NCBI RefSeq assembly: GCF_001644705.1 | Contig: NZ_CP015137.1 | Coordinates: 360,001-392,000 of the forward strand | Source: Dickeya solani IPO 2222 | GTDB taxonomy: Bacteria; Pseudomonadota; Gammaproteobacteria; Enterobacterales; Enterobacteriaceae | Length of the DNA: 32,000 nt | Reading direction: 5' to 3' | In this document: piece after piece, positions 1 to 31,580 of the stretch | How the letters are laid out: each line of letters begins with the position of its first letter | Numbering within the stretch: position 1 is the first letter of the stretch | Notes under the pieces: model-generated | Seen by the model: the letters and a program-made list of their open reading frames with translations, nothing else | Database searches by the model: none | What the model was told of the DNA's origin: nothing | Made by a program: the position numbers and the translations under genes

Positions 1-428
1 AGCCCCAACTCCGCGGGCGATAACGACTCCGTCGACAACGAGGAGCGCGCCAGAGACGCCACATCCAGTTCAAACGCAACGGTGCCGGTAGTGTCCAGTT
101 CCGCGGTCACTTCACGGCCGCGTTTATCGAGCAGCAGCAGCGTCGGCGCCGAATCTTGCAGAATGTAGGACAGGCGTTCCTGCGGGTAATCCGGGTCGAG
201 CGGCACGTAGGCCCCACCTGCTTTGATGATCCCCATCAGGCCCACCACCATCTCGATACTGCGATCCAGACAGATGGCAACGCGATCGTCCGGTTTAACC
301 CCCTGCTGGCGTAAATGGTGCGCCAGTTGGTTGGACAAGGCATTCAGCTCTGCGTAGCTCAGTTCACGATCGCCAAAGCGCAGCGCCGTTGCCGACGGCG
401 TCAGTTTAACCTGCGCTTCGAACATCTG
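1..428 (-). other. Adenylation domain (N-terminal part only, motifs A1-A2); specificity residues lie outside the window
   Basis: aa ~565-706 read MFEAQVKLTPSATALRFGDRELSYAELNALSNQLAHHLRQQGVKPDDRVAICLDRSIEMVVGLMGIIKAGGAYVPLDPDYPQERLSYILQDSAP. Confidence 0.85.
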
Positions 429-2120
429 ATGCGTATAGGCAACGTCAGGGTAAACCTTGGCGGTGTTATTCCATTCGTTCAACAGCAAATGACGTTCGGC
501 GGCTGGCAGAATAGCGATCTGCTGCATCGGCGTATTGGGCGCGTTATCCAGCGCGCCGGCGATATTTTCAAGCGCCTGCTGCGTATAGGCGAACAGCAGT
601 TCGGGGTCCAGCGAATCCACCACCTGAATATTCAGGCCCAGCGCGTTGCCGTAGTCGTCCACCGACAGCGTGATCGGGTAAGTGGTGCGTTCTTCAAAGC
701 CATCCCACTGATCGGCTTCCGGCACTACAAAATCCAGCGACTTGCTTTCTGATTCACGGTTATGGCGATAGTTAAACAGGGTGTTGAACAGCGGCGTAGA
801 ACCGCTAATACCGCTGCAGCGCAGTGCTAATGCCAATGACGCATGCTCATGGCTAAGCAGTTCCGCCAAACGTTTGTGGGTGGTGCGCACGCTTTCCTGA
901 ACGCTGGCGCCATGCATATCAAGGCGCAGCGGCAGCGTGTTAATGAATGGCCCCATGATCTGGTCGGCGCCGTCGCCGGCATGCATACGACCAAACAAAA
1001 TGGTGCCGAACACCACGGAATCCTGGCCGCTGATGCAGGCCAGAACCTGGCCCCACGCCAGATGGCAAATGCTGCCGAGGCTCACCCCCAGACGGCGCGC
1101 ATGCGCACGCAGGGCATCGTTCAAGCGCTGGGGAACCTTACGGGTCACTTCGATAATGTCGAAGTCATCCAGCATATTGACCAGGCCGTAAGGTGCGGTC
1201 GGCTCATCGATATCCGCCAGCGTAGCGCGGAAATAACGCTCATGCTCTTCCGGGCTTTTACCAAGGCGCACCTGCGCGATCAGACGACGGAACGGCTGCG
1301 CCGCCGGCAACGTGTGCCCGCGCCCGGCCAGGAAGGTATGAATCTCGGCGGAAAGAATAAGTACCGACGTAATATCATCGATCAGGTGATGCAGAACGCG
1401 GAACATCTCCCAGCGTTCGCTGCGCTTGTCATAAGCGACAAACGCGTGCAGTAACGGCGGCTTAGCCAGGTCAATGCTGTAATGCGACGGGTCGAAACGA
1501 TCGGACAGCTGTTTAGCGATAGGACCGTTCGCCGGGTCCAGATCCACCTCCAGCACGTGCAGTGTCGCCTGACGCTGAACCACCTGGCACGGGGTCGATA
1601 CGCCTTCCCAGTAGAAACCGGTACGCATGATATCGTGGCGGTCAATCACCTGCTGCACCGCGGCAAGATAGTTATCGACCTTTTCGCGGCTATCAAACGT
1701 CATCTGCCCCGTTTGCAGGTAGGGGTCGCCTTTGCTGGCCAGCATATGGTGGAACAGAATCCCTTCCTGAAGCGGCGCCAGCGAGTAGATATCCTGGATA
1801 TTGCTCACGCCGCCGGACACCTGTTCGACCACGTGATCGATATCTTTCTGAGTAAAGTCAATCAGCGGCAACAGCTCTGGCGTAATCGCCGTCGTCTCTG
1901 GGGTAATCTTGTTCGCAGGGACCACCACCTCAAACGCGTTTGACAGGCGTTTGCCATTACGCAGAGCGTGAACCATGGTCATTTTATGCTCGCGTAGCGC
2001 ACTTTTAATCTCACTGGTTAGCGCGCCTTTGGCTGAAGTAATAACCAAATCATCGTTATCCAGCGATATCGAGATTTTTGCCTCTTCCAACGTCAGCAGT
2101 AATTGTTCGAAATCGCTCAT
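1..2120 (-). CDS. Non-ribosomal peptide synthetase, N-terminal 706 aa (docking domain - C - start of A); 3' end lies beyond the window
   Basis: The minus-strand frame is open from ATG 2118-2120 (GGAGGA 6 nt upstream) to coordinate 1. I hand-translated it without stops (MSDFEQLLLTLEEAKISISL...VASLARSSLSTESLSPAELG). It contains the C motifs IQDIYSLAPLQEGILFHH and HHLIDDITS and the A-domain motifs LSYAELN and KAGGAYVPLDP. It is absent from the supplied ORF track because it has no stop codon in the window. Confidence 0.93.
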   Translation of the reverse strand, partial: MSDFEQLLLTLEEAKISISLDNDDLVITSAKGALTSEIKSALREHKMTMVHALRNGKRLSNAFEVVVPANKITPETTAITPELLPLIDFTQKDIDHVVEQVSGGVSNIQDIYSLAPLQEGILFHHMLASKGDPYLQTGQMTFDSREKVDNYLAAVQQVIDRHDIMRTGFYWEGVSTPCQVVQRQATLHVLEVDLDPANGPIAKQLSDRFDPSHYSIDLAKPPLLHAFVAYDKRSERWEMFRVLHHLIDDITSVLILSAEIHTFLAGRGHTLPAAQPFRRLIAQVRLGKSPEEHERYFRATLADIDEPTAPYGLVNMLDDFDIIEVTRKVPQRLNDALRAHARRLGVSLGSICHLAWGQVLACISGQDSVVFGTILFGRMHAGDGADQIMGPFINTLPLRLDMHGASVQESVRTTHKRLAELLSHEHASLALALRCSGISGSTPLFNTLFNYRHNRESESKSLDFVVPEADQWDGFEERTTYPITLSVDDYGNALGLNIQVVDSLDPELLFAYTQQALENIAGALDNAPNTPMQQIAILPAAERHLLLNEWNNTAKVYPDVAYTHQMFEAQVKLTPSATALRFGDRELSYAELNALSNQLAHHLRQQGVKPDDRVAICLDRSIEMVVGLMGIIKAGGAYVPLDPDYPQERLSYILQDSAPTLLLLDKRGREVTAELDTTGTVAFELDVASLARSSLSTESLSPAELG
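546..1889 (-). other. Condensation domain (full length, HHxxxD present)
   Basis: aa ~78-525 carry IQDIYSLAPLQEGILFHH, RHDIMRTGFYW, VLHHLIDDITS (His-His-x3-Asp), IMGPFINTLPLRLD and FEERTTYPITLSVDD. It is a close paralogue of the C domain at 5152-6495. Confidence 0.9.
1947..2120 (-). other. TubC-type (beta-hairpin) N-terminal NRPS docking domain
   Basis: aa 1-58 read MSDFEQLLLTLEEAKISISLDNDDLVITSAKGALTSEIKSALREHKMTMVHALRNGKR. This fits the pattern L..L...g..l..d.d.L.i.a.kGaLt.ei...l..hK..l...L seen in docking domains that precede a C domain at protein N-termini. Confidence 0.7.
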
Positions 2121-2223: not shown

Positions 2224-5200
2224 TCACAGTCGAGTCTCCGCAAGCTCGATGGTTCTGGCCGCAAGGTCTGCCAGAATAGGCGTATCAAAAAGTGTGCGTA
2301 TCTCGATGCTGAGCCCTCTTCGGCGTAACTGTTCAATCAAACGCACGGCTAGCAGCGAATAGCCGCCGAGTTCAAAAAAGTGGTCCTGACGTCCGATCCG
2401 CTCGACACCCAGAAGTTCTTCCCAGATAGACGCCATGGTGATTTCCATACTGCCCTGTGGCGGAACATACGCGCGCCGGGCGAAGGACATCTCATCCGGC
2501 GGCACCAGAGCGTTGCGGTCTATCTTGCCATTCGGCGTCAGCGGTAAAGATTTGAGCGTCACGAAGGCGGCCGGGACCATATAATCCGGCAGCGCATCCT
2601 GAAGATGCTTACGTAATGCTTTACGGCTAAACAGGGTCTGTACCAGACCTTTGAGCGCCGCCGCGTGTTCCAGCGCCGGCAACGCATTCTCAGGCACGAT
2701 CCAATCGATCAAACAGGCGACCTCATTAACACCGGCTTCCTGTAACTTCTCCGCCACGGGCAGCGCGGATTCCGGCGTACCAATAAATGACAGCTCGCGG
2801 GTATAGCGCTTGAAAGCGAACTCCAGCATGCTGCGTTTATCCGCGCTGGGAAGCGTATCGAGGTGAATGTTCTGCTCTTTGAGCCAGCCGGAGAGTAAAC
2901 TGAGATGCCCTTCCAGATAATCAAGGAACGGCCCTTTCGCCTGTGCCAATACCTCGTTAAGGTTCTCCCCCAGGTAGGTATGAATCATCACCGTCACCGT
3001 GCCGGTACGGGGATCGAACCCCGCGTTTTCACGCGCCGTGCGGTATATTTCGATATTTTTAGCCAGCTTCTCGATATTCTGCGTGAGCATGTGGGTCAGC
3101 AAATTCGCCCCGCTGCGACCGGCATACTCAAAGGTTTCCGATGCACCGGCGGCGGTTACCCAAATCGGCAGTTGCTTTTGCACCGGAGCGGGGTAAATCC
3201 GTACTGAAATTTCATCCCCATGACTATCCCGGCGGGAAACGCTGCCGCCCTGCCACAGCGTTTTCAGTTCCTCAATGCCTTTATGCATCAATTCACGGCG
3301 CTCATCGTAATTCTGCGGCGCCAGGACAAAATCCTGCTTATTCCAGCCTGAAGCGACGCCGATGCCAACGCGGCCGTTCGACAGGTTGTCGAGTATCGAC
3401 CAGTCTTCCGCCACGCAGAGCGTATCGTGCAACGGCAACACCACGCTGCCGGGACGCAGCTGGATATGGCGTGTTCTGGCCAACAGCGAGGCGCTTAACA
3501 GCGCCGGATTGGCGAACAGCCCCCCGACGTGGTGGAAGTGACGTTCCGGCGTCCACACGGCGGTGAAACCGTGTTTATCGCCAAACTCCGCCACCTCTGC
3601 GTAATGGTTATAAGCCTGCACGGCATCGCTGCTGGCGCCGAAGAAGAACAGGCTAAAATCCAGGCTGTCACTGTCGGCCAATGCCTCTTCCACATACTCT
3701 TCGGTCACACCGGGAACCACATACGCCACCAGCCGCGTCTCCCCGGAGATATCCTCTCTGGCGACGACCACCGCTTCGCGCACCCAGGGATGGCTCAACA
3801 ACCGCGCTTCGATTTCGCCCAGTTCGATACGGTGCCCACGCAACTTCAGCTGATGGTCGGTACGCCCGAGGAAAATCAGGCGGCCATCGGCCATAAACTG
3901 CGCGAAATCCCCGGTACGATAGAGACGGGCCGCCGGATCGGTTGAGAACGGGTCGGGAATAAAACGCTCGGCGGTCAGCTCGGGACGCTGGTGATAACCA
4001 CGGGCAACCCCGTCACCACCGATATACAACTCCCCGATAGCGCCCATCGGCACCGGTTTGCCGTACCTGTCCAGCAGATAGACTTGCGTGTTGGCAATCG
4101 GGCGGCCAATCGACTGGTTGTATTGCGTGACGTCCTCTGCATTGACGCGATTACACGTTGACCACACCGTGGTTTCCGTCGGCCCGTAGAGGTTCCACAA
4201 TGACTCGCCGAAGGCATGCAGACGCACCGCCAAATCGCTGGGCAGCGCTTCACCGCCGCAAAGGATCTTCAGCTGCTTGTGCGGTGTGGCGTCGGTATCC
4301 ACCAGCAAGCGCCAGGTGGTTGGCGTGGCTTGCATGATGGTGATGTTCAGGGTGTGCAACAGGTTAAGCAGCGCGTGAGGATCCATCGCCTGACTGCGGC
4401 TCGCCAGCACAATCGACGCGCCCGTCATCAACGGCAGATACAGTTCAAGCCCGGCAATATCAAATGAGATGCTGGTGACCGAGAGCAAACAATCCTCAAC
4501 GCCGAGGTTGAATAGTGCCTGCATCCCCGTCAGAAAATTGACCACCTGACGATGCTCAACCATCACCCCTTTCGGCTTGCCGGTCGAGCCCGAAGTATAA
4601 ATCACATAAGCCAGGTGGCTGGCGTTGAGCGTCGCCACATCGGGGTTGCCGCCAGGCAGTGCTTCCCAACGTGCGCCATCACGCGCCAGATCGACCACCG
4701 TGATATCACTGCCGGCCGCAGCCCCAAAGACGTCGCGTCCACGCTGGTCAAGCACCAGTACCTTAGGCGTGGCATCCTCAAGAATATAGGCCAGCCGTGT
4801 GGCGGGATATTCAGGGTCGAGCGGCACGTAGGCCCCGCCGGCTTTGAGGGTCGCCAGCAAAGCGACCAGCATCGTTTCCGTGCGTTCCGTACACACCGCT
4901 ACGCGCGTATCCGGCCTCACCCCTTGGGCTATCAAATGGTGAGCAAGACGGTTGGCGCGCTGATTAAGCTCGGCATAACTGAGGCGAACGTTACCCATTT
5001 GCAGCGCCAGCGCCTGTGGTCGTTGTTCGACCTGCCGCTCAAACAGCTGGTGGATAGTCGCCGTCGCCGGGAACGGCACCGCGGTATCATTCCAGGTTTT
5101 CAGCAGGTGCCGGCGCTCTTCCGGCGGCAGAATATTGAGTTCATACAGCGGCATTGGCGCGGCTGCCGGAACCCTATCGGCTTCAAGCGCCGCCACCAGG

Positions 5201-8200
5201 CTACTGATACTCTGGTGGAAGTAGCCAAACAGGCGCGCACAAGAAAGCGATTCAATCGCCTGAACGCCAATATCAAACCCATCGCCGAAGTCATCGACAG
5301 AGACAGAGATCGGGTAGTTGGTGCGCTCTTCAAATCCGTGCCATACCACGCCATCAAATTCGATATCACCTAACACATCACTGTCGGTCGGGCGATTGCG
5401 GCGGTAGTTGAACACGGCGCTGAACATCGGCGTCGGCGCCACAATCCCACTACATTGTTGAGCCAGCGACAAGCTGGCATGTTCATGTTTTATCAGCGCG
5501 GTGAGGCGCTGATGCGTCTGGCGAACCGCATCGGCGGCATAACCCTCGCCGACATCAAGACGCAACGGCAGCGTATTGATGCAAGGCCCCATGATTTTAT
5601 CGCTGTTCTCACCGTGCATACGTCCGGACAGGACGGTACCGAACACCACCGTATCGCTGCCGCAGGCAGCGCTCAGGACCCGCGCCCAGCTCAAGTGGCA
5701 CAGACTACTCACGCTTACGCCAAGGCGGCGAGCCTGAGCGCGCAGCCGTTGAGCCAGCGGCGCTTCAAGCGGGCGCCGTGTTTCACTGATCCGCTGGCCT
5801 TTAAGGTGGCCGTTCTTGAGATTAAACGGCACCGACGGTTCGGTGATGTCCGCCAGCATGTCGGTAAAAAACGCCGATTGCTGTTGGGTATCGTGACGTT
5901 GCTGCAACCGCGCCACGTGATGACGAAACGGCAATGCCGCCGGCAAACGCGCGCCTTCGCCATTGAGGAATGCCTGAATGTCGGAGAGCAAAATCTGTAG
6001 TGAGGCAATGTCATCCACCAAATGATGGATATACATCAAGGCTTCCCAGCGGGCCTGTTCTTCATCATAGGCCACCACCATGTGTAGCAACGGCGGCTGC
6101 GTGAGGTCGATGCGGTTGACCTGAGGATCAACGCGCGCCTTCATCTGTTCAACGACCGGGCCATCCTGAGCATCAAAGGTGAGCTCTGCAACGTGCAAGC
6201 GCGCGTGGCGTAGCACGACCTGCACAGGCGTTTCTACCCCTTGCCAGATAAACGCGGTGCGCAAGATATCATGGCGCTCAACAACGTGTTGGATAGCCTC
6301 AAGATAGCGATCCAGGGTCTGCCGGTGCGTAAATGACAGATGACCACACTGAAGGTAAGGGTCGCCGGCTTCATCGAACAGATGGTGGAACAGAATGCCT
6401 TCCTGCAGCGGCGCCAGCGCATAGATATCCTGAATATTGGCGATGCCTCCAGGTATGCGGGTAACGATCTGGTCTATCTGCTGTTGAGAAAGCGACACTA
6501 ACGGGAAAAGCGCGGGATGAAGCGCGGTGGTCGCCGGCGTGACCACATTCTCCGGGATGACGAACGCCGGGGAGGCATCGTCCTCAAGCCTGATTTGCGC
6601 AGCAAGATCGGCCAAAACTGGATGAGCGAAGAGAGTGGGCACATCGGTATACAGTTTCTGCTCACGGAGCGCTGCCTGCAGTTGCATCGCCAGCAGTGAA
6701 TGCCCACCCAGTTCGAAGAAATTGTCCTGCCGCCCGACCTGATCAACGCCGAGCATTGTCCGCCACAGCTGCGCCAGAATAGATTCCGTACCGGCGTTCG
6801 GCGCTTCAAAGTCGCGCTGCACGTAAGCGCTATCGTCCGGTAGCGGCAAGGCCTTACGATCGATCTTGCCATTCGCCGTCAGCGGCAGCGATTCCATCAC
6901 CACAAACGCCGCCGGGATCATATAGTGGGGCAGTTGCGTGGCGAGCACCTCGCGCCATTGCGCAATCGCACCATTACCGCACGCCGCCTCTGGCACTACA
7001 TAAGCCACCAGACGGGCCTCGCCGCTATCCGGCGTAATGCCGATAACGGTAGCGTCTTTGATGTGCTCAAGCGCCGCAATACGCGACTCGATTTCACCAA
7101 GCTCAATGCGATACCCGCTCAGTTTGATTTGGTGATCGCGACGGCCAAGAAATTCAATACGACCATCGTCAAACCAGCGCCCGATATCACCGGTACGGTA
7201 GACTCTGGCTCCGGCAACCCAGGGATCGGCAATAAACTGCTGGGCCGTCAGTTCAGGGCGATTCATGTACCCCACCGCGACGCCCTCGCCGCCGATCCAG
7301 ATTTCACCCGCCATGCCCGGCGCGCAAAGCTGACCCAGATTATCGACCACGTACATACGGGTGTTGGCGATGGGCCGCCCAATACTCAGGCGAGTATCCT
7401 GGCTGTGCTCAAAACCACGCATCCATGCCGACGACATAATGGTGGTTTCCGTCGGGCCGTAACCATTGATGTAACGGCAGCGCTCGCTCCAGCGTTCAAT
7501 CAGCCCAGGCGTCGGCGCTGACCCCGCCGTCAGAATGGTCATGCCTTCAGGCACGCGTGCGGGATCTAAGTGCGTGAGATACGGCGGTGGGAAGGCCGAG
7601 AAACGAATGTCGTGTTCAACCATATACTCCGTCAACGCGGGCGGATTCTGAATCAACGCATTCGACAGCAGATGCAGTTCACAACCGCGCGTCAAGGTAC
7701 CGAAAATCTCGCCCGCTGAGGCATCAAAGGTATAAGGCGCGAACTGGGTGATCGGTTGCCCGGCGCTAAAAATCCCGATGTGTTCGCACCAGGCACAGAA
7801 ATTGATCAGGCTGCGATGCGCTATCTCTACGCCTTTCGGCGTGCCCGTGGTCCCAGAGGTATAGATGATATAAGCAATAGCGTGCGAATCGATGGCCTCA
7901 GAATGGCTATCCTCAGGCTGCTCAGCATCCGTTTGCGCCTGCTCCAGATAATCCTCAACCAACAGCAAGGTGCTGCTTTCGTCCTCGCTAAAACTCGACC
8001 GATCGGCCCGGCTGGTCAGCGTCCAGCGCACTCGCGCATCGTTAATAATGAACGCGCGACGCTCGCCCGGCGCATCCAGGCCGACAGGCACATAAGCAGC
8101 GCCCAGCTTGATGATACCCAGCATGGCCGCGATCAGGTTCGGCGTTTTATCCATACTCAGGACAATACGATCGCCCTGGGTCACGCCGACGCGGCGCAGC

Positions 8201-9126
8201 CCTGCCGCAATCCGTTCGGCGCGTTCGGCAAGCTGCCGATAGCTTAAACGCACATCGCCTGCCACCAGCGCGGTGGCCTCGTTTCTCGCCGCCACTTGCT
8301 CGGCAAACAGAGAATAGAGAGAGCGATCCAACGCCGCATCGAGTTCGGTCGCATTCCACTCATGCATAACGCGTTCGATTTCTGCGTTACTGAGCAGCGA
8401 CTGTTCACCCAGTGTGTGCTCACTGCGCTGTGCAAAGCTGGACAACAGCTGCTGCAGGCGATTGAGAATGTTATGCGCATCTGCCTCGGTCATCTCGCCT
8501 TGGCGGTAATGCAGCGCTAATGACAACGTGACCCCGGTCTGGACAATAAGATGCAGCGGTACGTGCAACCTGTGGCGTTCATTTTCCGAGCCATGCGCAT
8601 CATGCACACTGATCAGCGAGTCGAAAAGCGGTTGATTCGATGGAAAGCCCACACCGTGCGAAAGGACATCAGGCATCAGATCGACATGGCGCTGATGCTG
8701 CTCAAACACTGAGGCAATATCGTTAAACCAGTCGCGCAACGCGAGACCGGCATCAAGATGCATGCGTAACGGCAAGGCGCAGTCTTCACCCCCGTCACGG
8801 GCAGGGAACCGCTTGCCAAACAGGACTTCATCCTCACCGCTGTACTTGCTCAGCAACAGGCTCCATGCCGCCGTCATCAGCACGTCCCATGTGGTGGACT
8901 CACGCTGCACCAGCGCCAGCAGTTCGGTACTCAACGCCTGCTCAACGTGGGAAACGAGCACACGGACTTCCTGCGCAGAGGAGGAGGCGCTCTTGGTATC
9001 CTCGCTCTCAGTGGCATTAACAAGGCTGGCGTTTGCCGTTCTTTGCGCCCCGGTAAGGTATCGCTGCCAATAAGCCGCGGCAGTATCCTTACGCGACAAG
9101 AGCATATTCTCCTGCATGGTAGCCAT
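2224..9126 (-). CDS. Bimodular NRPS: truncated C - A - T - C - A(luciferase-like monooxygenase insert) - T
   Basis: The ORF is 6,903 nt (2,300 aa). ATG 9126 lies 3 nt after the stop of the AT gene, with GAGGGAG upstream. Domain motifs are listed in the sub-features. It ends ...ADLAARTIELAETRL with no TE or R domain. Confidence 0.97.
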   Translation of the reverse strand: MATMQENMLLSRKDTAAAYWQRYLTGAQRTANASLVNATESEDTKSASSSAQEVRVLVSHVEQALSTELLALVQRESTTWDVLMTAAWSLLLSKYSGEDEVLFGKRFPARDGGEDCALPLRMHLDAGLALRDWFNDIASVFEQHQRHVDLMPDVLSHGVGFPSNQPLFDSLISVHDAHGSENERHRLHVPLHLIVQTGVTLSLALHYRQGEMTEADAHNILNRLQQLLSSFAQRSEHTLGEQSLLSNAEIERVMHEWNATELDAALDRSLYSLFAEQVAARNEATALVAGDVRLSYRQLAERAERIAAGLRRVGVTQGDRIVLSMDKTPNLIAAMLGIIKLGAAYVPVGLDAPGERRAFIINDARVRWTLTSRADRSSFSEDESSTLLLVEDYLEQAQTDAEQPEDSHSEAIDSHAIAYIIYTSGTTGTPKGVEIAHRSLINFCAWCEHIGIFSAGQPITQFAPYTFDASAGEIFGTLTRGCELHLLSNALIQNPPALTEYMVEHDIRFSAFPPPYLTHLDPARVPEGMTILTAGSAPTPGLIERWSERCRYINGYGPTETTIMSSAWMRGFEHSQDTRLSIGRPIANTRMYVVDNLGQLCAPGMAGEIWIGGEGVAVGYMNRPELTAQQFIADPWVAGARVYRTGDIGRWFDDGRIEFLGRRDHQIKLSGYRIELGEIESRIAALEHIKDATVIGITPDSGEARLVAYVVPEAACGNGAIAQWREVLATQLPHYMIPAAFVVMESLPLTANGKIDRKALPLPDDSAYVQRDFEAPNAGTESILAQLWRTMLGVDQVGRQDNFFELGGHSLLAMQLQAALREQKLYTDVPTLFAHPVLADLAAQIRLEDDASPAFVIPENVVTPATTALHPALFPLVSLSQQQIDQIVTRIPGGIANIQDIYALAPLQEGILFHHLFDEAGDPYLQCGHLSFTHRQTLDRYLEAIQHVVERHDILRTAFIWQGVETPVQVVLRHARLHVAELTFDAQDGPVVEQMKARVDPQVNRIDLTQPPLLHMVVAYDEEQARWEALMYIHHLVDDIASLQILLSDIQAFLNGEGARLPAALPFRHHVARLQQRHDTQQQSAFFTDMLADITEPSVPFNLKNGHLKGQRISETRRPLEAPLAQRLRAQARRLGVSVSSLCHLSWARVLSAACGSDTVVFGTVLSGRMHGENSDKIMGPCINTLPLRLDVGEGYAADAVRQTHQRLTALIKHEHASLSLAQQCSGIVAPTPMFSAVFNYRRNRPTDSDVLGDIEFDGVVWHGFEERTNYPISVSVDDFGDGFDIGVQAIESLSCARLFGYFHQSISSLVAALEADRVPAAAPMPLYELNILPPEERRHLLKTWNDTAVPFPATATIHQLFERQVEQRPQALALQMGNVRLSYAELNQRANRLAHHLIAQGVRPDTRVAVCTERTETMLVALLATLKAGGAYVPLDPEYPATRLAYILEDATPKVLVLDQRGRDVFGAAAGSDITVVDLARDGARWEALPGGNPDVATLNASHLAYVIYTSGSTGKPKGVMVEHRQVVNFLTGMQALFNLGVEDCLLSVTSISFDIAGLELYLPLMTGASIVLASRSQAMDPHALLNLLHTLNITIMQATPTTWRLLVDTDATPHKQLKILCGGEALPSDLAVRLHAFGESLWNLYGPTETTVWSTCNRVNAEDVTQYNQSIGRPIANTQVYLLDRYGKPVPMGAIGELYIGGDGVARGYHQRPELTAERFIPDPFSTDPAARLYRTGDFAQFMADGRLIFLGRTDHQLKLRGHRIELGEIEARLLSHPWVREAVVVAREDISGETRLVAYVVPGVTEEYVEEALADSDSLDFSLFFFGASSDAVQAYNHYAEVAEFGDKHGFTAVWTPERHFHHVGGLFANPALLSASLLARTRHIQLRPGSVVLPLHDTLCVAEDWSILDNLSNGRVGIGVASGWNKQDFVLAPQNYDERRELMHKGIEELKTLWQGGSVSRRDSHGDEISVRIYPAPVQKQLPIWVTAAGASETFEYAGRSGANLLTHMLTQNIEKLAKNIEIYRTARENAGFDPRTGTVTVMIHTYLGENLNEVLAQAKGPFLDYLEGHLSLLSGWLKEQNIHLDTLPSADKRSMLEFAFKRYTRELSFIGTPESALPVAEKLQEAGVNEVACLIDWIVPENALPALEHAAALKGLVQTLFSRKALRKHLQDALPDYMVPAAFVTLKSLPLTPNGKIDRNALVPPDEMSFARRAYVPPQGSMEITMASIWEELLGVERIGRQDHFFELGGYSLLAVRLIEQLRRRGLSIEIRTLFDTPILADLAARTIELAETRL
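2251..2451 (-). other. Thiolation (PCP) domain T2
   Basis: HFFELGGYSLLAVRLIEQL; the Ser2257 codon is at 2356-2358, checked against the DNA. Confidence 0.9.
2506..5055 (-). other. Adenylation domain A2, predicted glycine-specific, interrupted between A8 and A9/A10 by a monooxygenase domain
   Basis: Motifs are LSYAELN, LKAGGAYVPLDP, AYVIYTSGSTGKPKG, FDIAGLE, NLYGPTETT, GELYIGGDGVARGY, YRTGD and GRTDHQLKLRGHRIELGEIE. About 340 foreign aa follow, then LPDYMVPAAFV and PLTPNGKIDR. The hand-derived Stachelhaus residues (GrsA numbering) are D235 I236 L239 Q278 L299 G301 L322 V330 W331 K517 = DILQLGLVWK. That is one conservative change from the canonical Gly code DILQLGLIWK. Confidence 0.85.
2647..3663 (-). 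other. Luciferase-like (FMN-dependent) monooxygenase (MOx) domain embedded in A2
   Basis: aa ~1822-2160 read LDFSLFFFGASSDAVQAYNHYAEVAEFGDKHGFTAVWTPERHFHHVGGLFANPALLSASLLARTRHIQLRPGSVVLPLHD...GRVGIGVASGW...IPIWVTAAG. This is the typical N-terminal signature of the natural-product LLM domain family found inside NRPS A domains. Confidence 0.85.
5152..6495 (-). other. Condensation domain C2 (full length)
   Basis: Motifs are IQDIYALAPLQEGILFHH, RHDILRTAFIW, MYIHHLVDDIAS (H1034-H1035-x3-D1039), IMGPCINTLPLRLD and FEERTNYPISVSVDD. Confidence 0.92.
6592..6795 (-). other. Thiolation (PCP) domain T1
   Basis: NFFELGGHSLLAMQLQAAL; the Ser810 codon is at 6697-6699, checked against the DNA. Confidence 0.92.
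6847..8319 (-). other. Adenylation domain A1, substrate not assignable
   Basis: Motifs are LSYRQLAERA, IKLGAAYVPV, AYIIYTSGTTGTPKG, FDASAGEIF, NGYGPTETT, GEIWIGGEGVAVGY, YRTGD, GRRDHQIKLSGYRIELGEIE and PLTANGKIDR. The hand-derived specificity residues are D A G A L A G I M K, a code I do not recognise. Confidence 0.88.
8362..9084 (-). other. Truncated condensation-like domain (C-terminal lobe only; no HHxxxDG)
   Basis: aa ~15-255 begin at the YW..L motif (AAYWQRYLTG) that normally follows the catalytic N-lobe. They continue with VLMTAAWSLLLSKYSGEDEVLFG, CALPLRMHL and QPLFDSLISV, then run straight into A1. The ORF starts only 14 aa earlier, so there is no room for an N-lobe. Confidence 0.7.
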
Positions 9127-9129: not shown

Positions 9130-11016
9130 TTATGCTCCCTCTGTGACAACTTGCCTGGAATGGTTTTTTAAAACATTCAGTAAGTTGGATACGCTTTCGG
9201 CGTTCCTGCCGAATTGATTGATGATCGCGCCGTGCTGAAAACGCGCGGCAAATCCGTATTTGATGAAGATTGACAGGGTGCCGGTTGGGCTGAGATCAAC
9301 AAAAAACGCCTCGTTTTTCTCAGCCAACGCCTGCATTAAGCCGTAGAAATCGACGGGCTCGCGCAAGACTCGCCAGAAATACTCGCTATCCCATCGCTCA
9401 ACCGCGGTACTCAACATGGCGGAGTACACCGGCATTGCGGGGGTGTTTTTCGGCAAGGTGTCGACTAAGGCTCGGAAATCGTGCTCGATAGCCGCTATCC
9501 CGGACGAGTGGAAGGGTTGCTCAACCGGCAGCAGCATCGAGATAATCTCCAGTTGCGTCAGGCGTTCTTTGAGAGCCGACAGACTCGCCACATCACCACT
9601 GACCACAAAGTTATTCTGGAAGTTAATGCTGGCTAACTCGGCGCCCTGATAAAGCGCGGCATTCGCGTGGAAGTGCGCCACCGGCGCCAGCACGCTCATC
9701 ATCCCGCCGCCGGCGGTTTTCTTGTGCAGCAGGTGCGCCTGAGACACCACCAGTTTTATGGCGTCATCAAGCGTCAATACACCGGCCACGACAGCCGCGA
9801 TGCACTCGCCCAGGCTGTATCCCAGCACGGCGTCAGGTTCGATCCCTTCTGCTTTGAGCATACCGGTCAGGCTGACGCCAACACTCAGTAACGCCACATT
9901 GGACAGCGCCACATCAGAGAACGGCAGGTGATGGCGGGCGTCGTCATACAGCGCCTCCAGAAGACCGTGGCCGGTGTGTTGACGATACAGAGCGTCACAC
10001 CTGTCCATCTGGCTGCGAAAGGTACTATTACGTCGATACAGTTCACGGCCCATGCCGTAATACTGCGCACCCTGCCCCCCAAACATAAACACCACACGAG
10101 GGTTGGAGGATGGCGTTGTCGGGGCGTCGGCCACGTTTTTTACCGTTGGCTTACCCGGCAACGCCATCGGCTGTGCTTTTATTTTGTCAAACAGGCTGGT
10201 TAGTACCTGCCCTGGCCCGATTTCGTGCTGTTTAACCTCGCCGGACGCCAGCAGCCGCGAGATACTTTCGTACCAACGAACGGGGTGGCTTATCTGGCGC
10301 GTTAACAAGTCAAGATAATCGGTTTCTGGATAATCGAGCGCTGTGTAGTTGGAAATAACCCGCGCATTGAGCGGATTGAAAGTAAAGCGTTGCGCAAATT
10401 GTGCAAACTGCGCTTCGATATCTCGCATATAGCGAGAGTGAAAAGCCGCACTCACGTTTAGCCTGACGTAGCGTGCGCCGGCATCCGTAAACAACGTCTC
10501 GCAGGCAACGATGTCATCATAAAGACCCGAAATAACGATTTGCTGGGCACTGTTGATGTTGGCGATATCAATGCCGCTCAACGGCGACGCCGCGAGGAGC
10601 TCAACGATCTGATGCAGATCGATGCCCACGATGGCGGCCATCGCGCCGCGCGGCGCTTTCGACATCAGCATACCGCGCTCTCTGACCAGCGCGACGCCGG
10701 TTGCAAAATCAAACGCCCCCGCGGCAAACAGCGCGGCAAACTCCCCCAGACTATGACCCGCGTAGCAATCCGGCGCATCCAATCCGCTTTGTCGACTGGC
10801 GAGCACCCCGAGCGCTGAGACAACAAACAACGCTGGCTGGGTGAACATCGTCTCACCCAGCACACCCTGAGGATCGCTGAGGCATAGCTCACGAATGGAG
10901 AAACCGAGGATCTCATCGGCCTCGCTGACGAGCCTGGGGAAACGCTCAAACAGCTCATTCCCCATCCCTTTCTGCTGCGATCCCTGGCCAGGAAATACCC
11001 AAACTGAAGAAGACAT
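9130..11016 (-). CDS. Free-standing tandem acyltransferase (AT-AT) for the trans-AT PKS
   Basis: The track ORF is 9130-11049 and starts at GTG. I prefer ATG 11014-11016 (MSSSVWVFPGQGSQ), which has AGGAG at 11021-11025. It has two FabD-like halves with GHSLGE and GYSLGE nucleophile elbows. Confidence 0.93.
   Translation of the reverse strand: MSSSVWVFPGQGSQQKGMGNELFERFPRLVSEADEILGFSIRELCLSDPQGVLGETMFTQPALFVVSALGVLASRQSGLDAPDCYAGHSLGEFAALFAAGAFDFATGVALVRERGMLMSKAPRGAMAAIVGIDLHQIVELLAASPLSGIDIANINSAQQIVISGLYDDIVACETLFTDAGARYVRLNVSAAFHSRYMRDIEAQFAQFAQRFTFNPLNARVISNYTALDYPETDYLDLLTRQISHPVRWYESISRLLASGEVKQHEIGPGQVLTSLFDKIKAQPMALPGKPTVKNVADAPTTPSSNPRVVFMFGGQGAQYYGMGRELYRRNSTFRSQMDRCDALYRQHTGHGLLEALYDDARHHLPFSDVALSNVALLSVGVSLTGMLKAEGIEPDAVLGYSLGECIAAVVAGVLTLDDAIKLVVSQAHLLHKKTAGGGMMSVLAPVAHFHANAALYQGAELASINFQNNFVVSGDVASLSALKERLTQLEIISMLLPVEQPFHSSGIAAIEHDFRALVDTLPKNTPAMPVYSAMLSTAVERWDSEYFWRVLREPVDFYGLMQALAEKNEAFFVDLSPTGTLSIFIKYGFAARFQHGAIINQFGRNAESVSNLLNVLKNHSRQVVTEGA
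9250..10101 (-). other. AT2: divergent acyltransferase/acylhydrolase-like domain lacking the carboxylate-binding Arg
   Basis: VVFMFGGQGAQYYGMG, GYSLGE (Ser412 in track-ORF numbering), QPFHS. The residue 25 positions after the Ser, which is Arg117 in E. coli FabD, is Gln437 (KLVVSQAHLL). Confidence 0.75.
10150..11007 (-). other. AT1: malonyl-CoA:ACP transacylase-type domain
   Basis: VWVFPGQGSQQKGMG, GHSLGE (Ser100), Arg125 at the FabD Arg117 position (LVRERG), and an AAFHS (xAFH) malonyl-type motif. Confidence 0.85.
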
Positions 11017-11087
11017 AACTCTCCTATTACTGTTCCCGAGGACTGTCACTTAACGTTGCTTGTTTATCCCAACAGCGACTCGCTAGT

Positions 11088-12677: not shown

Positions 12678-13667
12678 CTAAGGCGCAATAAAACCGTTGG
12701 CCCGATACCAGGAAACGCACTCCTCCACCATCTGGCTTAAGGAGGAAGGCTTATAGCCCAGCTCACGCTCTGCCTTGGCGCTGCTAAAGTAATAAACCCC
12801 ACCGAAGACACGCAGACGATAGGCATCCAGCACCGGTTCGCCGCGCACCAGCCAGGGCAACTTTTCCTGAAGCAGGGTTTTCAGATAGAAAGACGAATAA
12901 TGGGTCTTAGGCAGATCAACCTTGCACGGCACGACCGATTCAATGGTGTTGATAAGCTCGGTATAGCGAGCATTCGCCCCCGCAATCAGGTAGCGCTCGC
13001 CTGAGTTTCCTTTGGTTAAGGCGCTGACGTGCGCGTCACCGACATCACCCGCGCCGCAAAAACTGGCACCGCCCGGGGGCAGGAACGGCAACTGGTTATA
13101 GTTCACCGCCAGCACCATGCGCCCCCACTGCATTGAATAGTCGTAGGCACCCAGCACTTCCGTCGGGTTCAGAATGACGGCGGACAAGCCGCGATCGCAG
13201 GCGCGGTACACCAGCTCCTCAGCGAGCAATTTACTTTTGGCATAAGGGTTTTTCGCGCGAAAACCCGCCAGCGCGGTCTCTTCGGTCGCTTCGGCGGCGG
13301 GGTCGTTATGCGCCCCGATCGTCGAGCTGGTACTGGTATACACCAGACGCGACACCCCGCATGCCAGCGCCGCCTCAATCACCGAGCGCGTCCCTTCAAC
13401 ATTGACCGCTGCCAGCAGCGGCCAGTCACGGGCGTTGCTGCTGGTATTGCCTGCGGTATGAATCACCCCGTCGTGCCCGGCCATCGCCGCTCGCAGGCGC
13501 TGGTTATCATGCAATTCGCCGCGCACCAGCGTGACGCCGAACGATTCCAGAAAGCTCACGTTGGATGACGCTCGCACATACGCCGTGACCTGATGTTTGG
13601 CGGCGACCAAGGCTTTTATAACGTTGAGCCCAACAAATCCGTTTGCTCCGGTGATCAGTATTTTCAT
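12678..13667 (-). CDS. NAD(P)-dependent extended short-chain dehydrogenase/reductase (epimerase/dehydratase fold), 329 aa; candidate ketoreductase
   Basis: MKILITGANGFVG (TGxxGxxG), a Ser-rich TSTSS strand, and PYAKSK (Tyr142-x3-Lys146). Its ATG 13665-13667 overlaps the PKS TGA 13664-13666 (ATGA). Confidence 0.9.
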   Translation of the reverse strand: MKILITGANGFVGLNVIKALVAAKHQVTAYVRASSNVSFLESFGVTLVRGELHDNQRLRAAMAGHDGVIHTAGNTSSNARDWPLLAAVNVEGTRSVIEAALACGVSRLVYTSTSSTIGAHNDPAAEATEETALAGFRAKNPYAKSKLLAEELVYRACDRGLSAVILNPTEVLGAYDYSMQWGRMVLAVNYNQLPFLPPGGASFCGAGDVGDAHVSALTKGNSGERYLIAGANARYTELINTIESVVPCKVDLPKTHYSSFYLKTLLQEKLPWLVRGEPVLDAYRLRVFGGVYYFSSAKAERELGYKPSSLSQMVEECVSWYRANGFIAP

Positions 13668-16600
13668 GGTGTTTGGTCTTGCTGATTAAGTTTTTCAAGC
13701 GTTTTCAGGAAGGCCTTGCGCCCTTCCCCTTTGCTGCGCATAGGAAGCGCCGCCGGATTTTTATCCGGATGGTTGGCGATCCCTTCAAGCAGAATCACGA
13801 ACTGCTCAAGCAGTTGATCTAGCTGCGCTATCTGGGTGTCCATCCCCCGGCAGTCAAGACGTAAAAGCACACTGTGCGCCTCAACGCTGACCACCAGCGC
13901 CACATGCAGCCCAGGTTGAACGGCAAAGAGCGCGGAGATGGCCTCGCTCAAACCGGCCTCGTCGCCGTCAGTCAGCAGAGCAACCGCGCTATCAAACAGC
14001 GGCGCATCGCCAACCCAGCGCTCAATCCGCTCAAGCGTGGCCCCGGTATGGTCGAAACATTTTTCAAGCTGTGTTTCAACGCCTTTGAGCCAAAGCGCGG
14101 TCTTGTGGCGCCCAACCACCTGAATACGCGCGGGTATCATCTGAAGATGTTCATCATTAACATGCCGGATCAGGCCGAACTGGGAATACTTGCCCCGCGC
14201 ATGGCGATTGGTGAGAAGCGCCCAGCCAGCGGCCATCAGCGTCTCAACGGAGATCGCCTGACGTTGGGTACAGATTTGCAGGGCCGCCACCGTGTCCCGA
14301 TCGATTCGCCGCTCCACGGACAGCGTTTGCGGTGCGGAGGCTTCGGCATCCTGAACCTCTGCGCCGCCAAGCAGCACCGAAGCCATCAACGCGCCGACCT
14401 CGTCTTGGGCATGCGGTTCTTGGGCATGCAGTTGCTCAACCCAGAACGCCTGCAATTGCTCATCGTCTAGCGCGTCCACGTTGCGTTCATTCCGCGGGCC
14501 GGCAAACCATGCCTGCGGTACGGTAGGGGTAGGCGCGGCATCAGGAGCAGGTAGCGCAGCTAATTCGTTGTGGCGTGTTTGCCGCTGCGGTGCGTCAAGG
14601 CGCAGCGCGGCGTAAAGATCGCAGGGTTCTTTCGCAAAGGGGTAGCCGGGGAAAGCCACGCGACGACGTACTGCCTCGTGGTGTAACAGGCTCCAGTCAA
14701 TGTCGCAGCCACGACTCCACAGAGTGGCGACTTTGGCGAGCTGCTGCGTTTGCACCAATACATGAATAAAGTGCTTACCCGCCTCGCCGGCGATCAGCTG
14801 CGGGACATCTTTGGTTTCACGCACGTTGCCGCGATAAATATCCAGCTTGCTATGCTCAGAGGCAGGGTGAGCAATAAAGCACTCCAGTTTCGTCAGCAGA
14901 TCATCAATACTCGTCGCCACGATAGCCAACCGATGATCAAGCGTGACACGCCCAATCTGGCTGGTGTAGGCCAGGTCAGCGAGATGAAGCGCACTCCCCT
15001 GTTGCTTAATAAAGTCACGCATCTCGACGGCATACGCCGCCAAACGCTCCGCCCGATGCGCCGACAACACCACTATCTGCGGGCTGTTCTCCGCGTTATC
15101 CCTGGCGACAAGTGTTTGGTCACTATTTCGCATGAGCACGTCCTCGGGGGACTCAACCACCACAAATGCGGTAGAACCGCCCATGCCATAGGCGTTAATC
15201 CCTGCCAAACGCGTGCCTCTGGCATTGGTGCGCCATTCCTGCGCCTCGCGCGGGAACAGGAACGCAGACGTTTCATGCTCGAACGACGTGTTGACACGAT
15301 CAAGGTTGACACAAGGCGACAGACGGCCGTGCTGCATGCTCAGCAGCACCTTAATCAATGAACAGATGCCCGATGCCGCTTCCATGTGCCCAAGGTTGGC
15401 CTTGGTTCCCAACGCGCAAAAATGTTGCGCGTGAGTCTGGCGACGCAGCGCGTTGGACAGCGCCTTCAGTTCAATCGGATCGCCCAACTCGGTCGCCGCA
15501 CCGTGGCTTTCGATATACGTCAGCTCGTTAACGTCGATACGCGCCTCGTCCAGCGCCCGAACGGCGGTCTCCTCCATCACGGCCAGATTCGGCAAATATT
15601 GCCCCGCCCCCGTGCCCGCATGGCCGATGCTTGAACCGCGCAGCACGCCATAGATATGGTCGCCATCCGCCAGTGCGGTGCTCAGGCGTTTCAGTACCAC
15701 CATGCCGCTGCCTTCGCTTGGAATCAGGCCATTGGCGCGCTCATCGAAGGTGTGCTCCTTGCCGTCCGAAGAGAGCACGTTCATCTCCTGGAGCAGCATA
15801 TATTTGCTTGGGTGAAGGCTAAGATTAATGCCGCCGGCGAGCGCCATATCACACTCACCACCGAGAATGGCCTTACGTGCGATGTGCACGCTCGTCAGCG
15901 ATGACGCACAGGTGGTGGCAACGCAGAAACTGGGGCCGCGCAGATTCATCAGGAACGAAATGCGATTCGCCAGCTCACTGACGACAGAACCCGCCCCCGG
16001 ATATCGACCCGTGCGGGCATAAAGCTCGGCCATGACCCAGGTGAAATCTTCATTCATCGCGCCGACATACACGCCCACTTGCTGAGACGTGAGCGCTGAC
16101 GGGGTGTAACCGGCGTTCTCCAGGGCATGCCAGGCGGAGCGCAACAAAACACGCACCTGAGGATCGAGACGACTGGCTTCATCACTGCTCATACGGAACA
16201 TCTCTGGATCAAAGACATTCACGTTGTTGAGGAAACCACCGCGATTCACGTAACGCGGATTGCCGTTATCGTCCGGCGAAATAGCCCAACGCGCATTCGG
16301 GATCGTAGTCAGGCTCTCTTTGCCCGCCTGAATATCCGCCCAGAAATCCGCCAGATTCTCGGCGCCGGGGAACTCGCCCGCCACACCGATAATCGCCACG
16401 GCGTCACTGGCGGCATTCACACTGGTTGATAACGATGAGCGGGCAGCATGCGAACCCAAGGTATTCGTGGGCGCGTTAGGCATCGCCCGTTTAACATAAG
16501 GCGCGGCAGCGGCAGCGCCGGCGTGATGGCTATTCACCGTCGCTGCGGTACGACGCGGCGGCGTCTCTGCCGACACCTGCTGGCTCTCCTGCGTTGCGCC

Positions 16601-25600: not shown

Positions 25601-28600
25601 GGCATAGTCAAAAATAGCGATACCGTCTTCGGTCAGCAGCGGAACAATCCCGAACTGGCTCTTCAGAAAGCCCTCTTCTTTATCAGTAAGGCGCATACCG
25701 CCGTCTTTCCAATAGGGCCAGTTCAGAGACAGCGTTTTACCGCTACGTTCACCCTGCTGTTGCAGTGCGTTACGCTGATAAGAGAAATAATCCTCGAAGG
25801 CATTACCAAAGGCATAGTCGCATTGACCCATATTGCCTAAGACGCCGGTGACGGAAGAAAAGAGCGCAAAGAAGTCGAGCGGCTGATCGCGTGTGGCGTC
25901 ATCAAGCAGCCAGGTGCCGATTGCCTTCGGGGTGATGACCCGCCCAAAGGCCTCGCTGCTTTTACGCAGAATAAAGTTATCTTCGATGACGCCGGCAGAA
26001 TGGATGATACCGTTCAGCGTGCGGTCCGATGCGCGGATCGCGGCGATCAAACCCTGAACACTATCAGGATCGCTAATGTCACACGCCAGATAAATGGCCT
26101 TGCCACCCCGTTCATTAAGCTCATCAAGTTGCTGTTGCCGCTTTTCATCCAGCGCGGAGCGCCCGCTCAGATAGACGGTGGCGTCATAGCATGAGCACAG
26201 GAAACGGGCAAAAATCAGCCCTAAAGCGCCTAACCCACCGGTAATCAGGTAGGTTCCCTGCTGGCGCAGAGAAGCCGGGGCGGATACCGATAGGTTCACT
26301 GAATCAGCCACCTTCGCGCTCAACGCTGAACGAGCATGCGCGGATAACTGAGCATCCGTGACAAAGCGGCGCACCAGACGAGTCCCCTGCACATAACGCA
26401 CGTCGGCATCTTTGGATACGTCGCTGAATTCGGTTTTGAGCAACGTCAGGATCGCAGTGCCCGTCTCTTTTTCGCCATCAATAACCGGGTCGCAATGAAC
26501 AACATGGCCAATATAGGCCGGTTTTTCGACACGTAAAGTACGGTAGAAACCACTGATAGCGGAGATATCCGGCACGCTCTCGCTGGCGAGATAGAAATGG
26601 ACAAACCGAACCTTTTTGACCTTACGCATCAGCGCCTTAGTCAGCGCGAAGAGGCTATGGGGGCCACGACTCAGGCGATCAACAAAATCATCGCCGGCCT
26701 GTTGCGTATTGACCCACAGCACCTGCTCAAACGTTGCTCCCCGCGACAACAGCGCATCCACCGCTGCAATGAAGTCATCGCTATTGCCCGGACGAACCAA
26801 CGCGCGATCCGGCTCGCGATCCACATCCGGCGTGGATGCAAACTGGATTCGTTGCACTTGAGGCGGATTTTCCGACTGCGCGATGAGGTTTGCGAACCAG
26901 TCGACATCCTGCTCACTGCCCACCAGCACAACCTGCTTCATGGGCACATCGGCCTCTAACACATTTTTCTCAATCCAGTATGGCTGATAGAGGTGTACGG
27001 TTTCAGACAGCGTAAGCGGTGAATGTTCGGCTTTCGCCTGATCGGCTACAGCAAGGCTGTCATCGAGAACGCGCAAGCTTAAGCCGCGGAATATCAGCGC
27101 GACGAGTTCAGGGTTGCTGGCATCGCTGACGTGAATATCAACCTTGAATACACCATCGCGGATAGGCTTCTCGCCTGACAGGGTGATCGTTGACGTCATG
27201 GCTGAACTGCAAGGATGTAATAGCTCCAATCCCTCCAGAGAGAATGGAATGACCATCGCCCCCGGCTCATTCTCCGGCCGCAATGCGCGCAGCATTTCGG
27301 TCGCCCAGACAACCGCGGCCTGCAAGGCGCCATCCGCCAAAGACGGATGAATGACAAAGTCCGCGCTATGCGCATCAGGCAGTACCAGATCTGCGACACA
27401 GGCATGTTCATCGAACATGATCTGGCTGATAGACCTCAGGCCTACGCCGTAGCACATCTGCAAACTATCAAGCAGTTGATAGCAGGCAACCGCATCGCGC
27501 GCGTGAGCATCGTCGGCCAATACCGCTGCCGGCATAGCAGGAAGTGCATCCCCGGAAAACCCTATAGTCCCCCGGCAGTAAAGCGTTTGATCGTTACCAA
27601 GAACCTGAAATAACCATGATTTGCCGGGCTCATGCGGATCAAGCTGAATGTCTATATCCGAAGCCGCGTCGTGAAACTCCAGCGGCCTTAACCAGGCCAC
27701 CTGGGAGAAACGTAATGTATCGCCATCTTTTAAATCAATAGCATCAGTGAAGGCGGCACGGACTAGTTCCAGATATGCCACCCCCGGCAGTATTGTCTGC
27801 CCGCCGATCCGATGACCGGCAATAAAAAACTCATCGCCCTGAAGCAGGGCCTTATAATGAGAACTCCCAATGTTCATGACACGGTGACGCTGGGCACGCA
27901 AGACGGCACGCTGCGAACCGGCCTTATCGTTTTGGCTAATCCAAAAATGATTGTGGATAAATGGGTAACCAGGAAGCGCAATACGTTGCGGACGAGCCCC
28001 CGCAAATAGCCGGGACCAATCCAATGGCACACCATGCTCATAATATTCACGCAGTTGTTGCAAAGACCGTTTCACCGCCGCGGCATCGGCTTGATTAATA
28101 GCATCAAGTAGGGCGGCGCCTTCAACACGGGCTTTTTCCACTTCATCCGCGGCATGCTCTTTCAAATCCAACGGGCCTTGCTCAACCGCCTTTTCTAACG
28201 CCTGAATAATCTTCTGAACATCACGCCCCACACAGCCATAGCGATAAGCAAAGTGATCGCGGCGAGTCAATAATGTCGCACTCACATCACGCAGTGATAC
28301 GTCTGGATGCTCACTCAACCACTGGATCAAATCTTTTTGGCGTTGCAACAGTGCCGCCGGGCTTTTTGCAGAAAGCGCAATGAGATACTCATTACGTTTC
28401 GCAGACTTGCCAGTCGCTTGCTGACCGCCCACAGACTCAGGGGCTTCTTCTAATACTATGTGGGCATTAGTCCCCCCGAATCCGAACGAACTCACCCCCG
28501 CACGACGCGGTGTATTAGCGTCAATACGCTGCCAGTCAACGGCTTCATCAACGAAGAAGAAAGGCGTCGAGGTCACGTCAATTTTAGGATTGAGAGCAGA

Positions 28601-30315: not shown

Positions 30316-30541
30316 TATATCCTAAATAATTCGAGTTGCAGGACAACATGTCCGCGCTTTGAATAACGCAACGCGTTAGCCCTTCAGGACAAGGCTCGTC
30401 ATGGGCCTTACGTAGCGAATCCCCACAGGGCCACCAGAAGTCGATTTGAACGCAGTTTGTTGTGGTCCCGGAGGGGGGAGACCTATGGATGGGTCGAGGA
30501 ATAAAGCCAACACACCCACAACCTGGGGTATGACGAGTATA
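30316..30541. repeat. ERIC/IRU-like enterobacterial intergenic repeat, enlarged by internal insertions
   Basis: The ends and core match the ERIC consensus as I recall it. The left end is TATATCCTAAATAATTCGAGTTGCAGGA (consensus TATACTCTAAATAATTCGAGTTGCAGGAAGG). The core is GAATCCCCACAGGGCC (GAATCCCCAGGAGCTT). The right end is AAAGCCAACACACCCACAACCTGGGGTATGACGAGTATA (CAGCCAACGCAGCACATGCAACTTGAAGTATGACGGGTATA). About 100 nt of extra sequence lies between the matching blocks. Confidence 0.6.
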
Positions 30542-31520: not shown

Positions 31521-31580
31521 GTTTTTCATGGACTAAACAGTCCGGGATGCAGGTGGAGCACTGTGGGATTTGCTGGAACG

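Follow-up and report, generated by a model that had tools for sequence, protein, structure and literature searches.

A glycine adenylation domain interrupted by a luciferase-like monooxygenase in SolF of the Dickeya solani solanimycin cluster, and its relatives in other assembly lines

The stretch of Dickeya solani IPO 2222 DNA analyzed here (contig NZ_CP015137.1, positions 360,001 to 392,000; 32,000 nt, hereafter the window) carries all its long open reading frames (ORFs), as delimited by ORF calling, on the minus strand, and one of them encodes a nonribosomal peptide synthetase (NRPS) whose second adenylation (A) domain is split by a predicted luciferase-like monooxygenase (LLM) domain. An exact-sequence look-up matches this 2300-aa protein to the D. 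solani entries ANE74135.1, AUH10453.1, and others (41 contigs), and the neighboring tandem acyltransferase (AT-AT) and short-chain dehydrogenase/reductase (SDR) proteins are likewise matched in D. solani genomes. Proteins of 5358, 329, 414, 89, 639 (628 from the annotated start), and 2300 aa follow the sizes and the order published for SolA to SolF (PMC9765074, Table 1), and the part of the next protein contained in the window (aa 1–706) matches positions 1–706 of the 1163 positions of the NCBIfam SolG profile NF041803 with 1579 bits. On the basis of the protein match, the gene sizes and order, and the SolG model match, the window is the solA–solG part of the D. solani solanimycin (sol) cluster, and the split A domain is that of SolF module 4.

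A SolF module with an embedded monooxygenase has already been published for this same gene cluster. A preliminary description of the window, made from its letters alone, had assumed the arrangement to be novel, which the literature does not allow (PMC9765074, PMC10204066). Indeed, SolF of D. solani MK10 is the same protein, with 2300 aa, the same neighbors, and the same A-ox-P ending (PMC9765074, PMC10204066), its domain string being given as 'A-P-C-A-ox-P' in Table 1 of Matilla et al. 2022 (PMC9765074), and no difference between the two is detectable at protein level. The significance of the window itself is thus low: the feature is real and was read correctly, but it had been described for this exact gene.

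SolF contains, in order, the C-terminal lobe of a condensation (C) domain, an A domain (A*), a thiolation (T) domain, a C domain, the glycine A domain split by the LLM, and a final T domain. The entire second A domain covers positions 2506–5055 (SolF aa 1358–2207). Motif search locates A3 (LAYVIYTSGSTGKPKG) at aa 1505–1520, A4 (FDIA) at aa 1555, A5 (NLYGPTE) at aa 1645, A6 at aa 1698, and A7 at aa 1736, followed by A8 at the border of the insert, while A9 and A10 are both found past it (Table 1). With A1 to A8 complete before the insert and A9 and A10 after it, the domain is an A domain interrupted between a8 and a9. The distance from A8 to A9 is 405 aa here versus 51 aa in the first A domain of SolF, and the insert therefore measures about 354 aa. 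The preliminary description had put the insertion at this point, in agreement with the motif positions and with the TIGR04020 and Pfam matches. It had also read a glycine code, DILQLGLVWK, and the alignment read-out returned the same residues, the nine code positions being DILQLGLVW and the lysine of A10 completing the string. The glycine prediction for this module has itself been published.

The module ends as had been stated. The T domain, with its phosphopantetheine serine in GGYSL, is followed by a stop codon, the protein ending at position 2224, and the next ORF, starting at 2120, encodes SolG, which opens with a TubC_N docking domain and a complete C domain, after which an A domain begins and is cut by the edge of the window. 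In the part of SolG contained in the window, Pfam detects no thioesterase (TE) after the T domain of SolF module 4; TubC_N, C, and the beginning of A come next.

Table 1. Features of the sol genes in the window and of the SolF–SolG junction (window coordinates)
Feature	Position	Strand	Evidence
solA, polyketide synthase (PKS) of the trans-AT type, 5358 aa	13664–29740	-	ORF; size equals that of SolA in PMC9765074
solB, SDR, 329 aa	12678–13667	-	ORF; size against Table 1 of PMC9765074
solC, pyridoxal phosphate (PLP) enzyme, 414 aa	11382–12626	-	ORF; size against Table 1 of PMC9765074
solD, acyl carrier protein, 89 aa	11088–11357	-	ORF; size against Table 1 of PMC9765074
solE, AT-AT	9130–11049	-	ORF; size against Table 1 of PMC9765074
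solF, NRPS, 2300 aa	2224–9126	-	ORF, translation, Pfam and NCBIfam domains, exact match to D. solani NRPS
C domain of the glycine module, about aa 895–1345	5092–6444	-	Pfam Condensation aa 899–1286; active-site motif HHLVDDI
A core, A1–A8, aa 1358–1790, code DILQLGLVWK (Gly)	3757–5055	-	Pfam AMP-binding aa 1362–1712; motifs; alignment
A8 motif GRTDHQLKLRGHRIELGEIE, aa 1754–1773, upstream insertion border	3808–3867	-	motif search
Inserted LLM, predicted to depend on flavin mononucleotide (FMN), aa 1812–2165	2632–3693	-	TIGR04020, PF00296, 6KET match
A-domain remainder after the insert	2491–2631	-	motif search
A9 motif LPDYMVP, aa 2179–2185	2572–2592	-	motif search
A10 motif NGKIDR, aa 2199–2204	2515–2532	-	motif search
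T (peptidyl carrier) domain, module 4	2239–2463	-	Pfam PP-binding, two stretches
GGYSL (located by motif search), aa 2254–2258	2353–2367	-	
solG, 5' part, running off the window	3–2120	-	Pfam; NCBIfam SolG NF041803
SolG TubC_N docking domain, aa 5–50	1971–2108	-	Pfam, E 3.9e-8
SolG C domain, Condensation aa 109–546	483–1796	-	Pfam

The inserted domain scores as a member of the TIGR04020 subfamily (MupA/Atu3671 natural-product LLMs), whose curated cut-off is 244.45 bits. In SolF, the core match covers aa 1824–2152 (nt 2671–3657) with 423.5 bits (E 6e-127), and the excised insert alone reaches 429.2 bits with model positions 1–334 of 341 covered. Pfam recognizes Bac_luciferase (PF00296) at aa 1825–2133 (E 6.6e-43), and among solved structures the PuwE monooxygenase (PDB 6KET) comes closest, matched over 326 aa with an E-value of 2e-93, a sequence match which settles the predicted LLM fold. 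E-values of this order exclude chance as the source of the matches. Of 84 alignment columns with at least 93% conservation among 119 homologs, the domain retains 76, including PERHF at aa 1860–1864. Furthermore, identity across ten Dickeya orthologs is 96.0% in the LLM, level with that of the flanking catalytic domains (96.7% in the A core and 95.6% in the C domain). Taken together, the conserved columns and the orthologue identity argue for a domain that is maintained and probably functional, and a decayed LLM was rejected on the same two grounds. Shorter members of the protein cluster (P0015, 1823 aa, and others) were considered as natural variants devoid of the LLM and discarded, each being the same protein annotated with a truncated N-terminus.

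The products of the cluster are documented by Murphy et al. 2023 (PMC10204066). Solanimycin B is solanimycin A with one additional oxygen, which tandem mass spectrometry (MS/MS) places on the glycine alpha-carbon, giving an alpha-hydroxyglycine residue, and feeding with 13C-glycine labels the Gly residue of solanimycin. The Gly or hydroxyglycine residue is followed by five dehydroalanine (Dha) residues, and the N-terminal acyl group is still attached. The ratio of A to B is about 60:40 and shifts to about 85:15 with serine feeding. These authors assigned the hydroxylation to the flavin monooxygenase of SolF module 4, solanimycin A resulting when the step is skipped, and reported that the carbinolamide stays uncleaved, unlike in myxothiazol and melithiazol (PMC10204066). 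Furthermore, Matilla et al. 2022 (PMC9765074) note two Dickeya strains in which SolF is devoid of a stretch of about 500 aa spanning the monooxygenase, in sol clusters that are otherwise complete; such variants are consistent with hydroxylation as optional tailoring.

In view of these data, it is likely that the LLM of SolF module 4 hydroxylates the glycine alpha-carbon and that the resulting carbinolamide is retained to give solanimycin B. The anatomy of the module and its identity with D. solani SolF are established, and the additional oxygen on glycine and the incorporation of glycine come from the literature; the role of the LLM as hydroxylase, its action on an already acylated glycine, and its cofactor are what we infer. 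The A domain would load glycine onto the T domain, and the upstream C domain would acylate the tethered glycine with the polyketide-derived amino-acyl group supplied by SolA. The LLM, carried in the a8–a9 loop of the small A subdomain, would then hydroxylate the alpha-carbon of the T-bound N-acyl-glycyl thioester by means of O2 and reduced FMN, the cofactor suggested by its family membership. Hydroxylation would come after acylation; an alpha-hydroxyglycyl residue with a free amine would break down into glyoxylate and ammonia. The unfragmented carbinolamide would finally be handed by TubC-type docking to the C domain of SolG, where serine, later Dha, would be added. Hydroxylation would remain incomplete, a skipped step leading to solanimycin A and a completed one to solanimycin B, with the SolG C domain taking both intermediates. 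Competition between the LLM and chain transfer to SolG would account for both the partial hydroxylation and the shift toward solanimycin A when serine is abundant.

Several points weigh against this assignment. The position of the hydroxyl was deduced from MS/MS of a semi-pure and unstable compound, and solanimycin B was too scarce for labeled fragmentation (PMC10204066). The published knockouts concern whole genes, not single domains such as the LLM, and the order of acylation and hydroxylation is argued from chemistry only. In addition, the sol cluster also encodes a cytochrome P450, SolI, outside the window, and eight of the 84 highly conserved LLM columns are altered in SolF, although the changes are conservative.

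These eight substitutions, the fact that the unhydroxylated solanimycin A is the major product (PMC10204066), and the absence of the domain from some Dickeya strains (PMC9765074) could suggest that the LLM is an inactive or dispensable relic and that the oxygen of solanimycin B is introduced non-enzymatically or in trans. We find this very improbable, since the retained columns with PERHF, the Dickeya identity equal to that of the flanking catalytic domains, and a TIGR04020 score far above the cut-off all speak against a relic, and the oxygen is located precisely at the residue that module 4 loads (PMC10204066). Another view is that the LLM works elsewhere in the line, for instance in the C-2 hydroxylation of a beta-ketoacyl thioester on SolA/SolD on the way to the alpha-amino group, with another enzyme making the glycine hydroxyl. 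TIGR04020 domains typically hydroxylate the position alpha to thioesters in PKS lines (PMC8739492), and the pathway needs a C-2 oxidation that has been given to the P450 SolI by proposal only (PMC10204066). The domain is nevertheless built into a glycine A domain, the glycine code recurs in nearly all A(LLM) fusions of the 80 loci surveyed below and thereby points to a glycine-linked role, variants of SolF without the LLM occur in otherwise complete sol clusters (PMC9765074), and solanimycin A, in which the step is skipped, still has its amino group (PMC10204066); this view therefore appears improbable.

The preliminary description had also considered on-line cleavage as in MtaG, by which a primary amide would be released and a glyoxylyl thioester left for SolG, alongside a retained alpha-hydroxyglycine. 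The latter corresponds to the published solanimycin B, and the former is contradicted by the product structure (PMC10204066). Cleavage would draw on the same chemistry as the terminal modules of MtaG and MelG, and carbinolamides are labile, solanimycin itself being reported as unstable (PMC10204066). However, MS/MS finds the acyl group joined through Gly or hydroxyglycine to the five Dha residues in both solanimycins, no TE follows SolF module 4, and Murphy et al. state that cleavage does not occur (PMC10204066), making it extremely improbable as the main fate of the chain; it could be a minor shunt in the SolF line.

The resemblance of hydroxylation by the SolF LLM to the chemistry of myxothiazol MtaG and melithiazol MelG had rightly been drawn (PMC10204066). 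In these terminal C-A(MOx)-T-TE modules, as in SolF, a glycine-coded A domain is split by a TIGR04020-type LLM, to which the alpha-hydroxylation of an N-acyl-glycyl thioester is attributed (PMC10204066). The two types differ in other respects. The monooxygenase lies between a4 and a5 in MtaG and MelG and between a8 and a9 in SolF (PMC10204066), and the a4/a5 site is also seen in the MtaG-like C-A(LLM)-T-TE proxies of Pyxidicoccus fallax (L036) and Cylindrospermum (L047). The T domain is directly followed by a TE in MtaG and MelG, whereas the docking and C domains of the next protein follow it in SolF. Finally, the carbinolamide is cleaved to a terminal amide in the MtaG and MelG lines and retained in solanimycin B (PMC10204066). 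Other members of the LLM subfamily, PuwE (6KET) and the PKS-embedded domains of OnnC, CalD, MndB, and palmerolide module 9, are credited with alpha-hydroxylation of carrier-bound acyl thioesters in their assembly lines (PMC8739492). They are free-standing or part of PKS modules and act on acyl chains, whereas the SolF LLM lies in an A domain and would act on an N-acyl-glycyl substrate. Skyllamycin, like solanimycin B, keeps an alpha-hydroxyglycine formed by a flavin monooxygenase (cited in PMC10204066); that enzyme stands alone in a macrocyclic peptide pathway, whereas that of SolF is a domain inside an A domain.

To place SolF among its relatives, an alignment of a8-LLM-a9-T sequences served to scan one genome per species. 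Relatives of the query are encoded at no fewer than 597 loci, the best 80 of which were retained for domain mapping with SolF-derived queries; the counts that follow refer to these 80 loci. Six of them have the LLM between a8 and a9 (type I), namely two metagenome-assembled genomes (MAGs) of Cellvibrionaceae, Alteromonadaceae, Rheinheimera soli, Rhizobacter, and a Pseudomonadota MAG. In 46 modules, with three more that are probable, the LLM starts about 20 aa past A4, between a4 and a5 (type II), and the hosts of these modules are Acidobacteriota, Bacteroidota, Chloroflexota, actinomycetes, cyanobacteria, Gemmatimonadota, and Myxococcota. Nearly all modules of both types carry the code DILQ[LMVF]G[LM][IV]W, with the conservative position-3 variants DIMQ and DIVQ, and the clear exceptions are the VD-initial codes of two type I modules (L001 and L005).

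A neighbor-joining tree of 85 LLM domains groups all eight of its type I inserts in one clade (bootstrap 75/100) that falls outside the type II group. The placement of the insert in such a phylogeny had been proposed at the outset with MtaG, MelG, and CtaG as references; the separation of the a8/a9 inserts from the a4/a5 type was obtained, in a tree built by neighbor joining only, with moderate support, and in which MtaG/MelG-like proxies stand for the named sequences. Since the type I clade lies outside the type II group, the tree favors a separate origin of each fusion over a single device placed at two sites. The preliminary description, which had seen in SolF the same device as in MtaG moved to mid-line, does not hold on this point, given the distinct insertion sites and LLM clades.

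Two further searches yielded little. The matches listed for the excised LLM are short, mostly free-standing LLM proteins with about 50% identity or below, and among them are no named MtaG, MelG, or CtaG, no long NRPSs, and not SolF's own Dickeya cluster. When representative proteins were searched with A(LLM)-T, summed scores favored giant multi-module NRPSs, and an LLM was present in two of 150 matches, P0212 and P0310. P0212 is also of type I and continues with a C domain. In P0310 (aa 3380–3860), the LLM lies directly before A5, past the LCGGEALP strand, and the protein stops right after the T domain; this site may be a third insertion point.

In the 48 glycine A(LLM)-T modules in which a T domain was found, the domain following T was scored, either within the ORF itself or in the next co-directional one. 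This domain is a C or ketosynthase (KS) domain in 34 of the 48 and a TE in three, and could not be resolved in 11, these figures coming from the best 80 of at least 597 loci and adjacency not proving the order of action. By type, C follows in five and KS in one of the type I modules, with TE and unresolved cases both at zero, and C follows in 14, KS in 14, and TE in three of the type II modules, with the 11 unresolved cases. Two of the type I modules have their T domain at the very end of the protein, and the protein after it starts with TubC_N and C, as in SolF and SolG. The three TE-followed type II modules (Pfam PF00975) belong to P. fallax L036, Cylindrospermum L047, and an Actinomycetota MAG (L078). 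Non-terminal placement is thus common and the MtaG-like terminal arrangement rare, and the mid-line position of the SolF module, first taken as exceptional, is not.

A broader picture, which we hold tentatively and slightly below an even chance, would be the following. The SolF-type a8/a9 fusion would have arisen independently of the MtaG type, glycine A(LLM) modules would mostly operate mid-line with the formation of terminal amides as a minority use, and retention of hydroxyglycine, or else some on-line chemistry yet to be described, would be widespread among uncharacterized pathways of Acidobacteriota, Bacteroidota, Chloroflexota, actinomycetes, and cyanobacteria. The a8/a9 clade would moreover reach non-glycine substrates, with codes similar to those for beta-alanine, and in one case with a second insert, a PLP-decarboxylase. 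To our knowledge, SolF is at present the only mid-line glycine-monooxygenase module with a linked product. The novel leads are therefore found beyond the window, in the widespread mid-line glycine-LLM modules, almost all of them uncharacterized, and in the odd type I relatives. In the SolF line, an acyclic carbinolamide would notably have to survive further chain extension.

Three of the surveyed loci are worth describing individually. In a Cellvibrionaceae MAG (L001:5582-11704), the SolF-type A(LLM) domain carries a second insert, a 565-aa PLP-dependent decarboxylase located between A5 and A6 (L001:8087-9781; Pfam PF00282, E 2e-47), an arrangement for which misassembly of the MAG is possible. 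Its specificity code, VDATISLLW, lacks Asp235. No A domain with an embedded decarboxylase is known to us from earlier descriptions. A Rhizobacter MAG (L005:7319-11743) encodes an a8/a9 A(LLM)-T with the code VDTVVSFGD, and the next protein starts with TubC_N, C, and A. This code resembles those for beta-alanine, and the module would predict an alpha-hydroxy-beta-alanine (isoserine) unit. In an Ignavibacteria MAG, two consecutive proteins (L049:3010-7752 and L049:7898-12247) each contain a glycine-coded a4/a5 A(LLM)-T, so that a single line would comprise two hydroxyglycine-type modules side by side.

Some additional features of the SolF–SolG line were observed. At its N-terminus, SolF has a Condensation domain reduced to the C-terminal lobe (aa 13–251, Pfam positions 191–453, E 1.4e-12; 8374–9090, minus strand), which is absent from the published SolF domain string (PMC9765074). 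SolA has KS, ketoreductase, and phosphopantetheine-binding domains in its last 1358 aa (Pfam), and its last ~400 aa (13664–14860, minus strand) match the same Condensation half weakly, with an E-value of 0.0087 that is below the cut-off. The half C domain at the start of SolF may bear on the hand-over of the polyketide from SolA to SolF.

The motifs HHMLASKGD and HHLFDEAGD occur near the N-termini of the C domains of SolG (483–1796) and of SolF module 4 (5092–6444), respectively, both on the minus strand. HH[LM]xxxxGD is a hallmark of dual epimerization/condensation or dehydrating C domains. Downstream of other a8/a9 A(LLM)-T modules, the C domains are scored as ordinary LCL domains. The presence of the motif in the two C domains may be linked to the way in which SolG forms Dha.

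The longest ORF of solE gives 639 aa from a GTG start, versus 628 aa in the paper and in most database entries; one D. solani SolE entry (WP_230477931.1) also has 639 aa, and the difference is a matter of start-codon choice only. Upstream of solA, the GC content falls from about 0.57 to 0.43–0.47 (window positions 28000–32000), and a tRNA-Gly(GCC) gene is found at 31649–31724 on the minus strand. The GC drop and the tRNA gene possibly mark a border of an acquired island in which the sol cluster lies.

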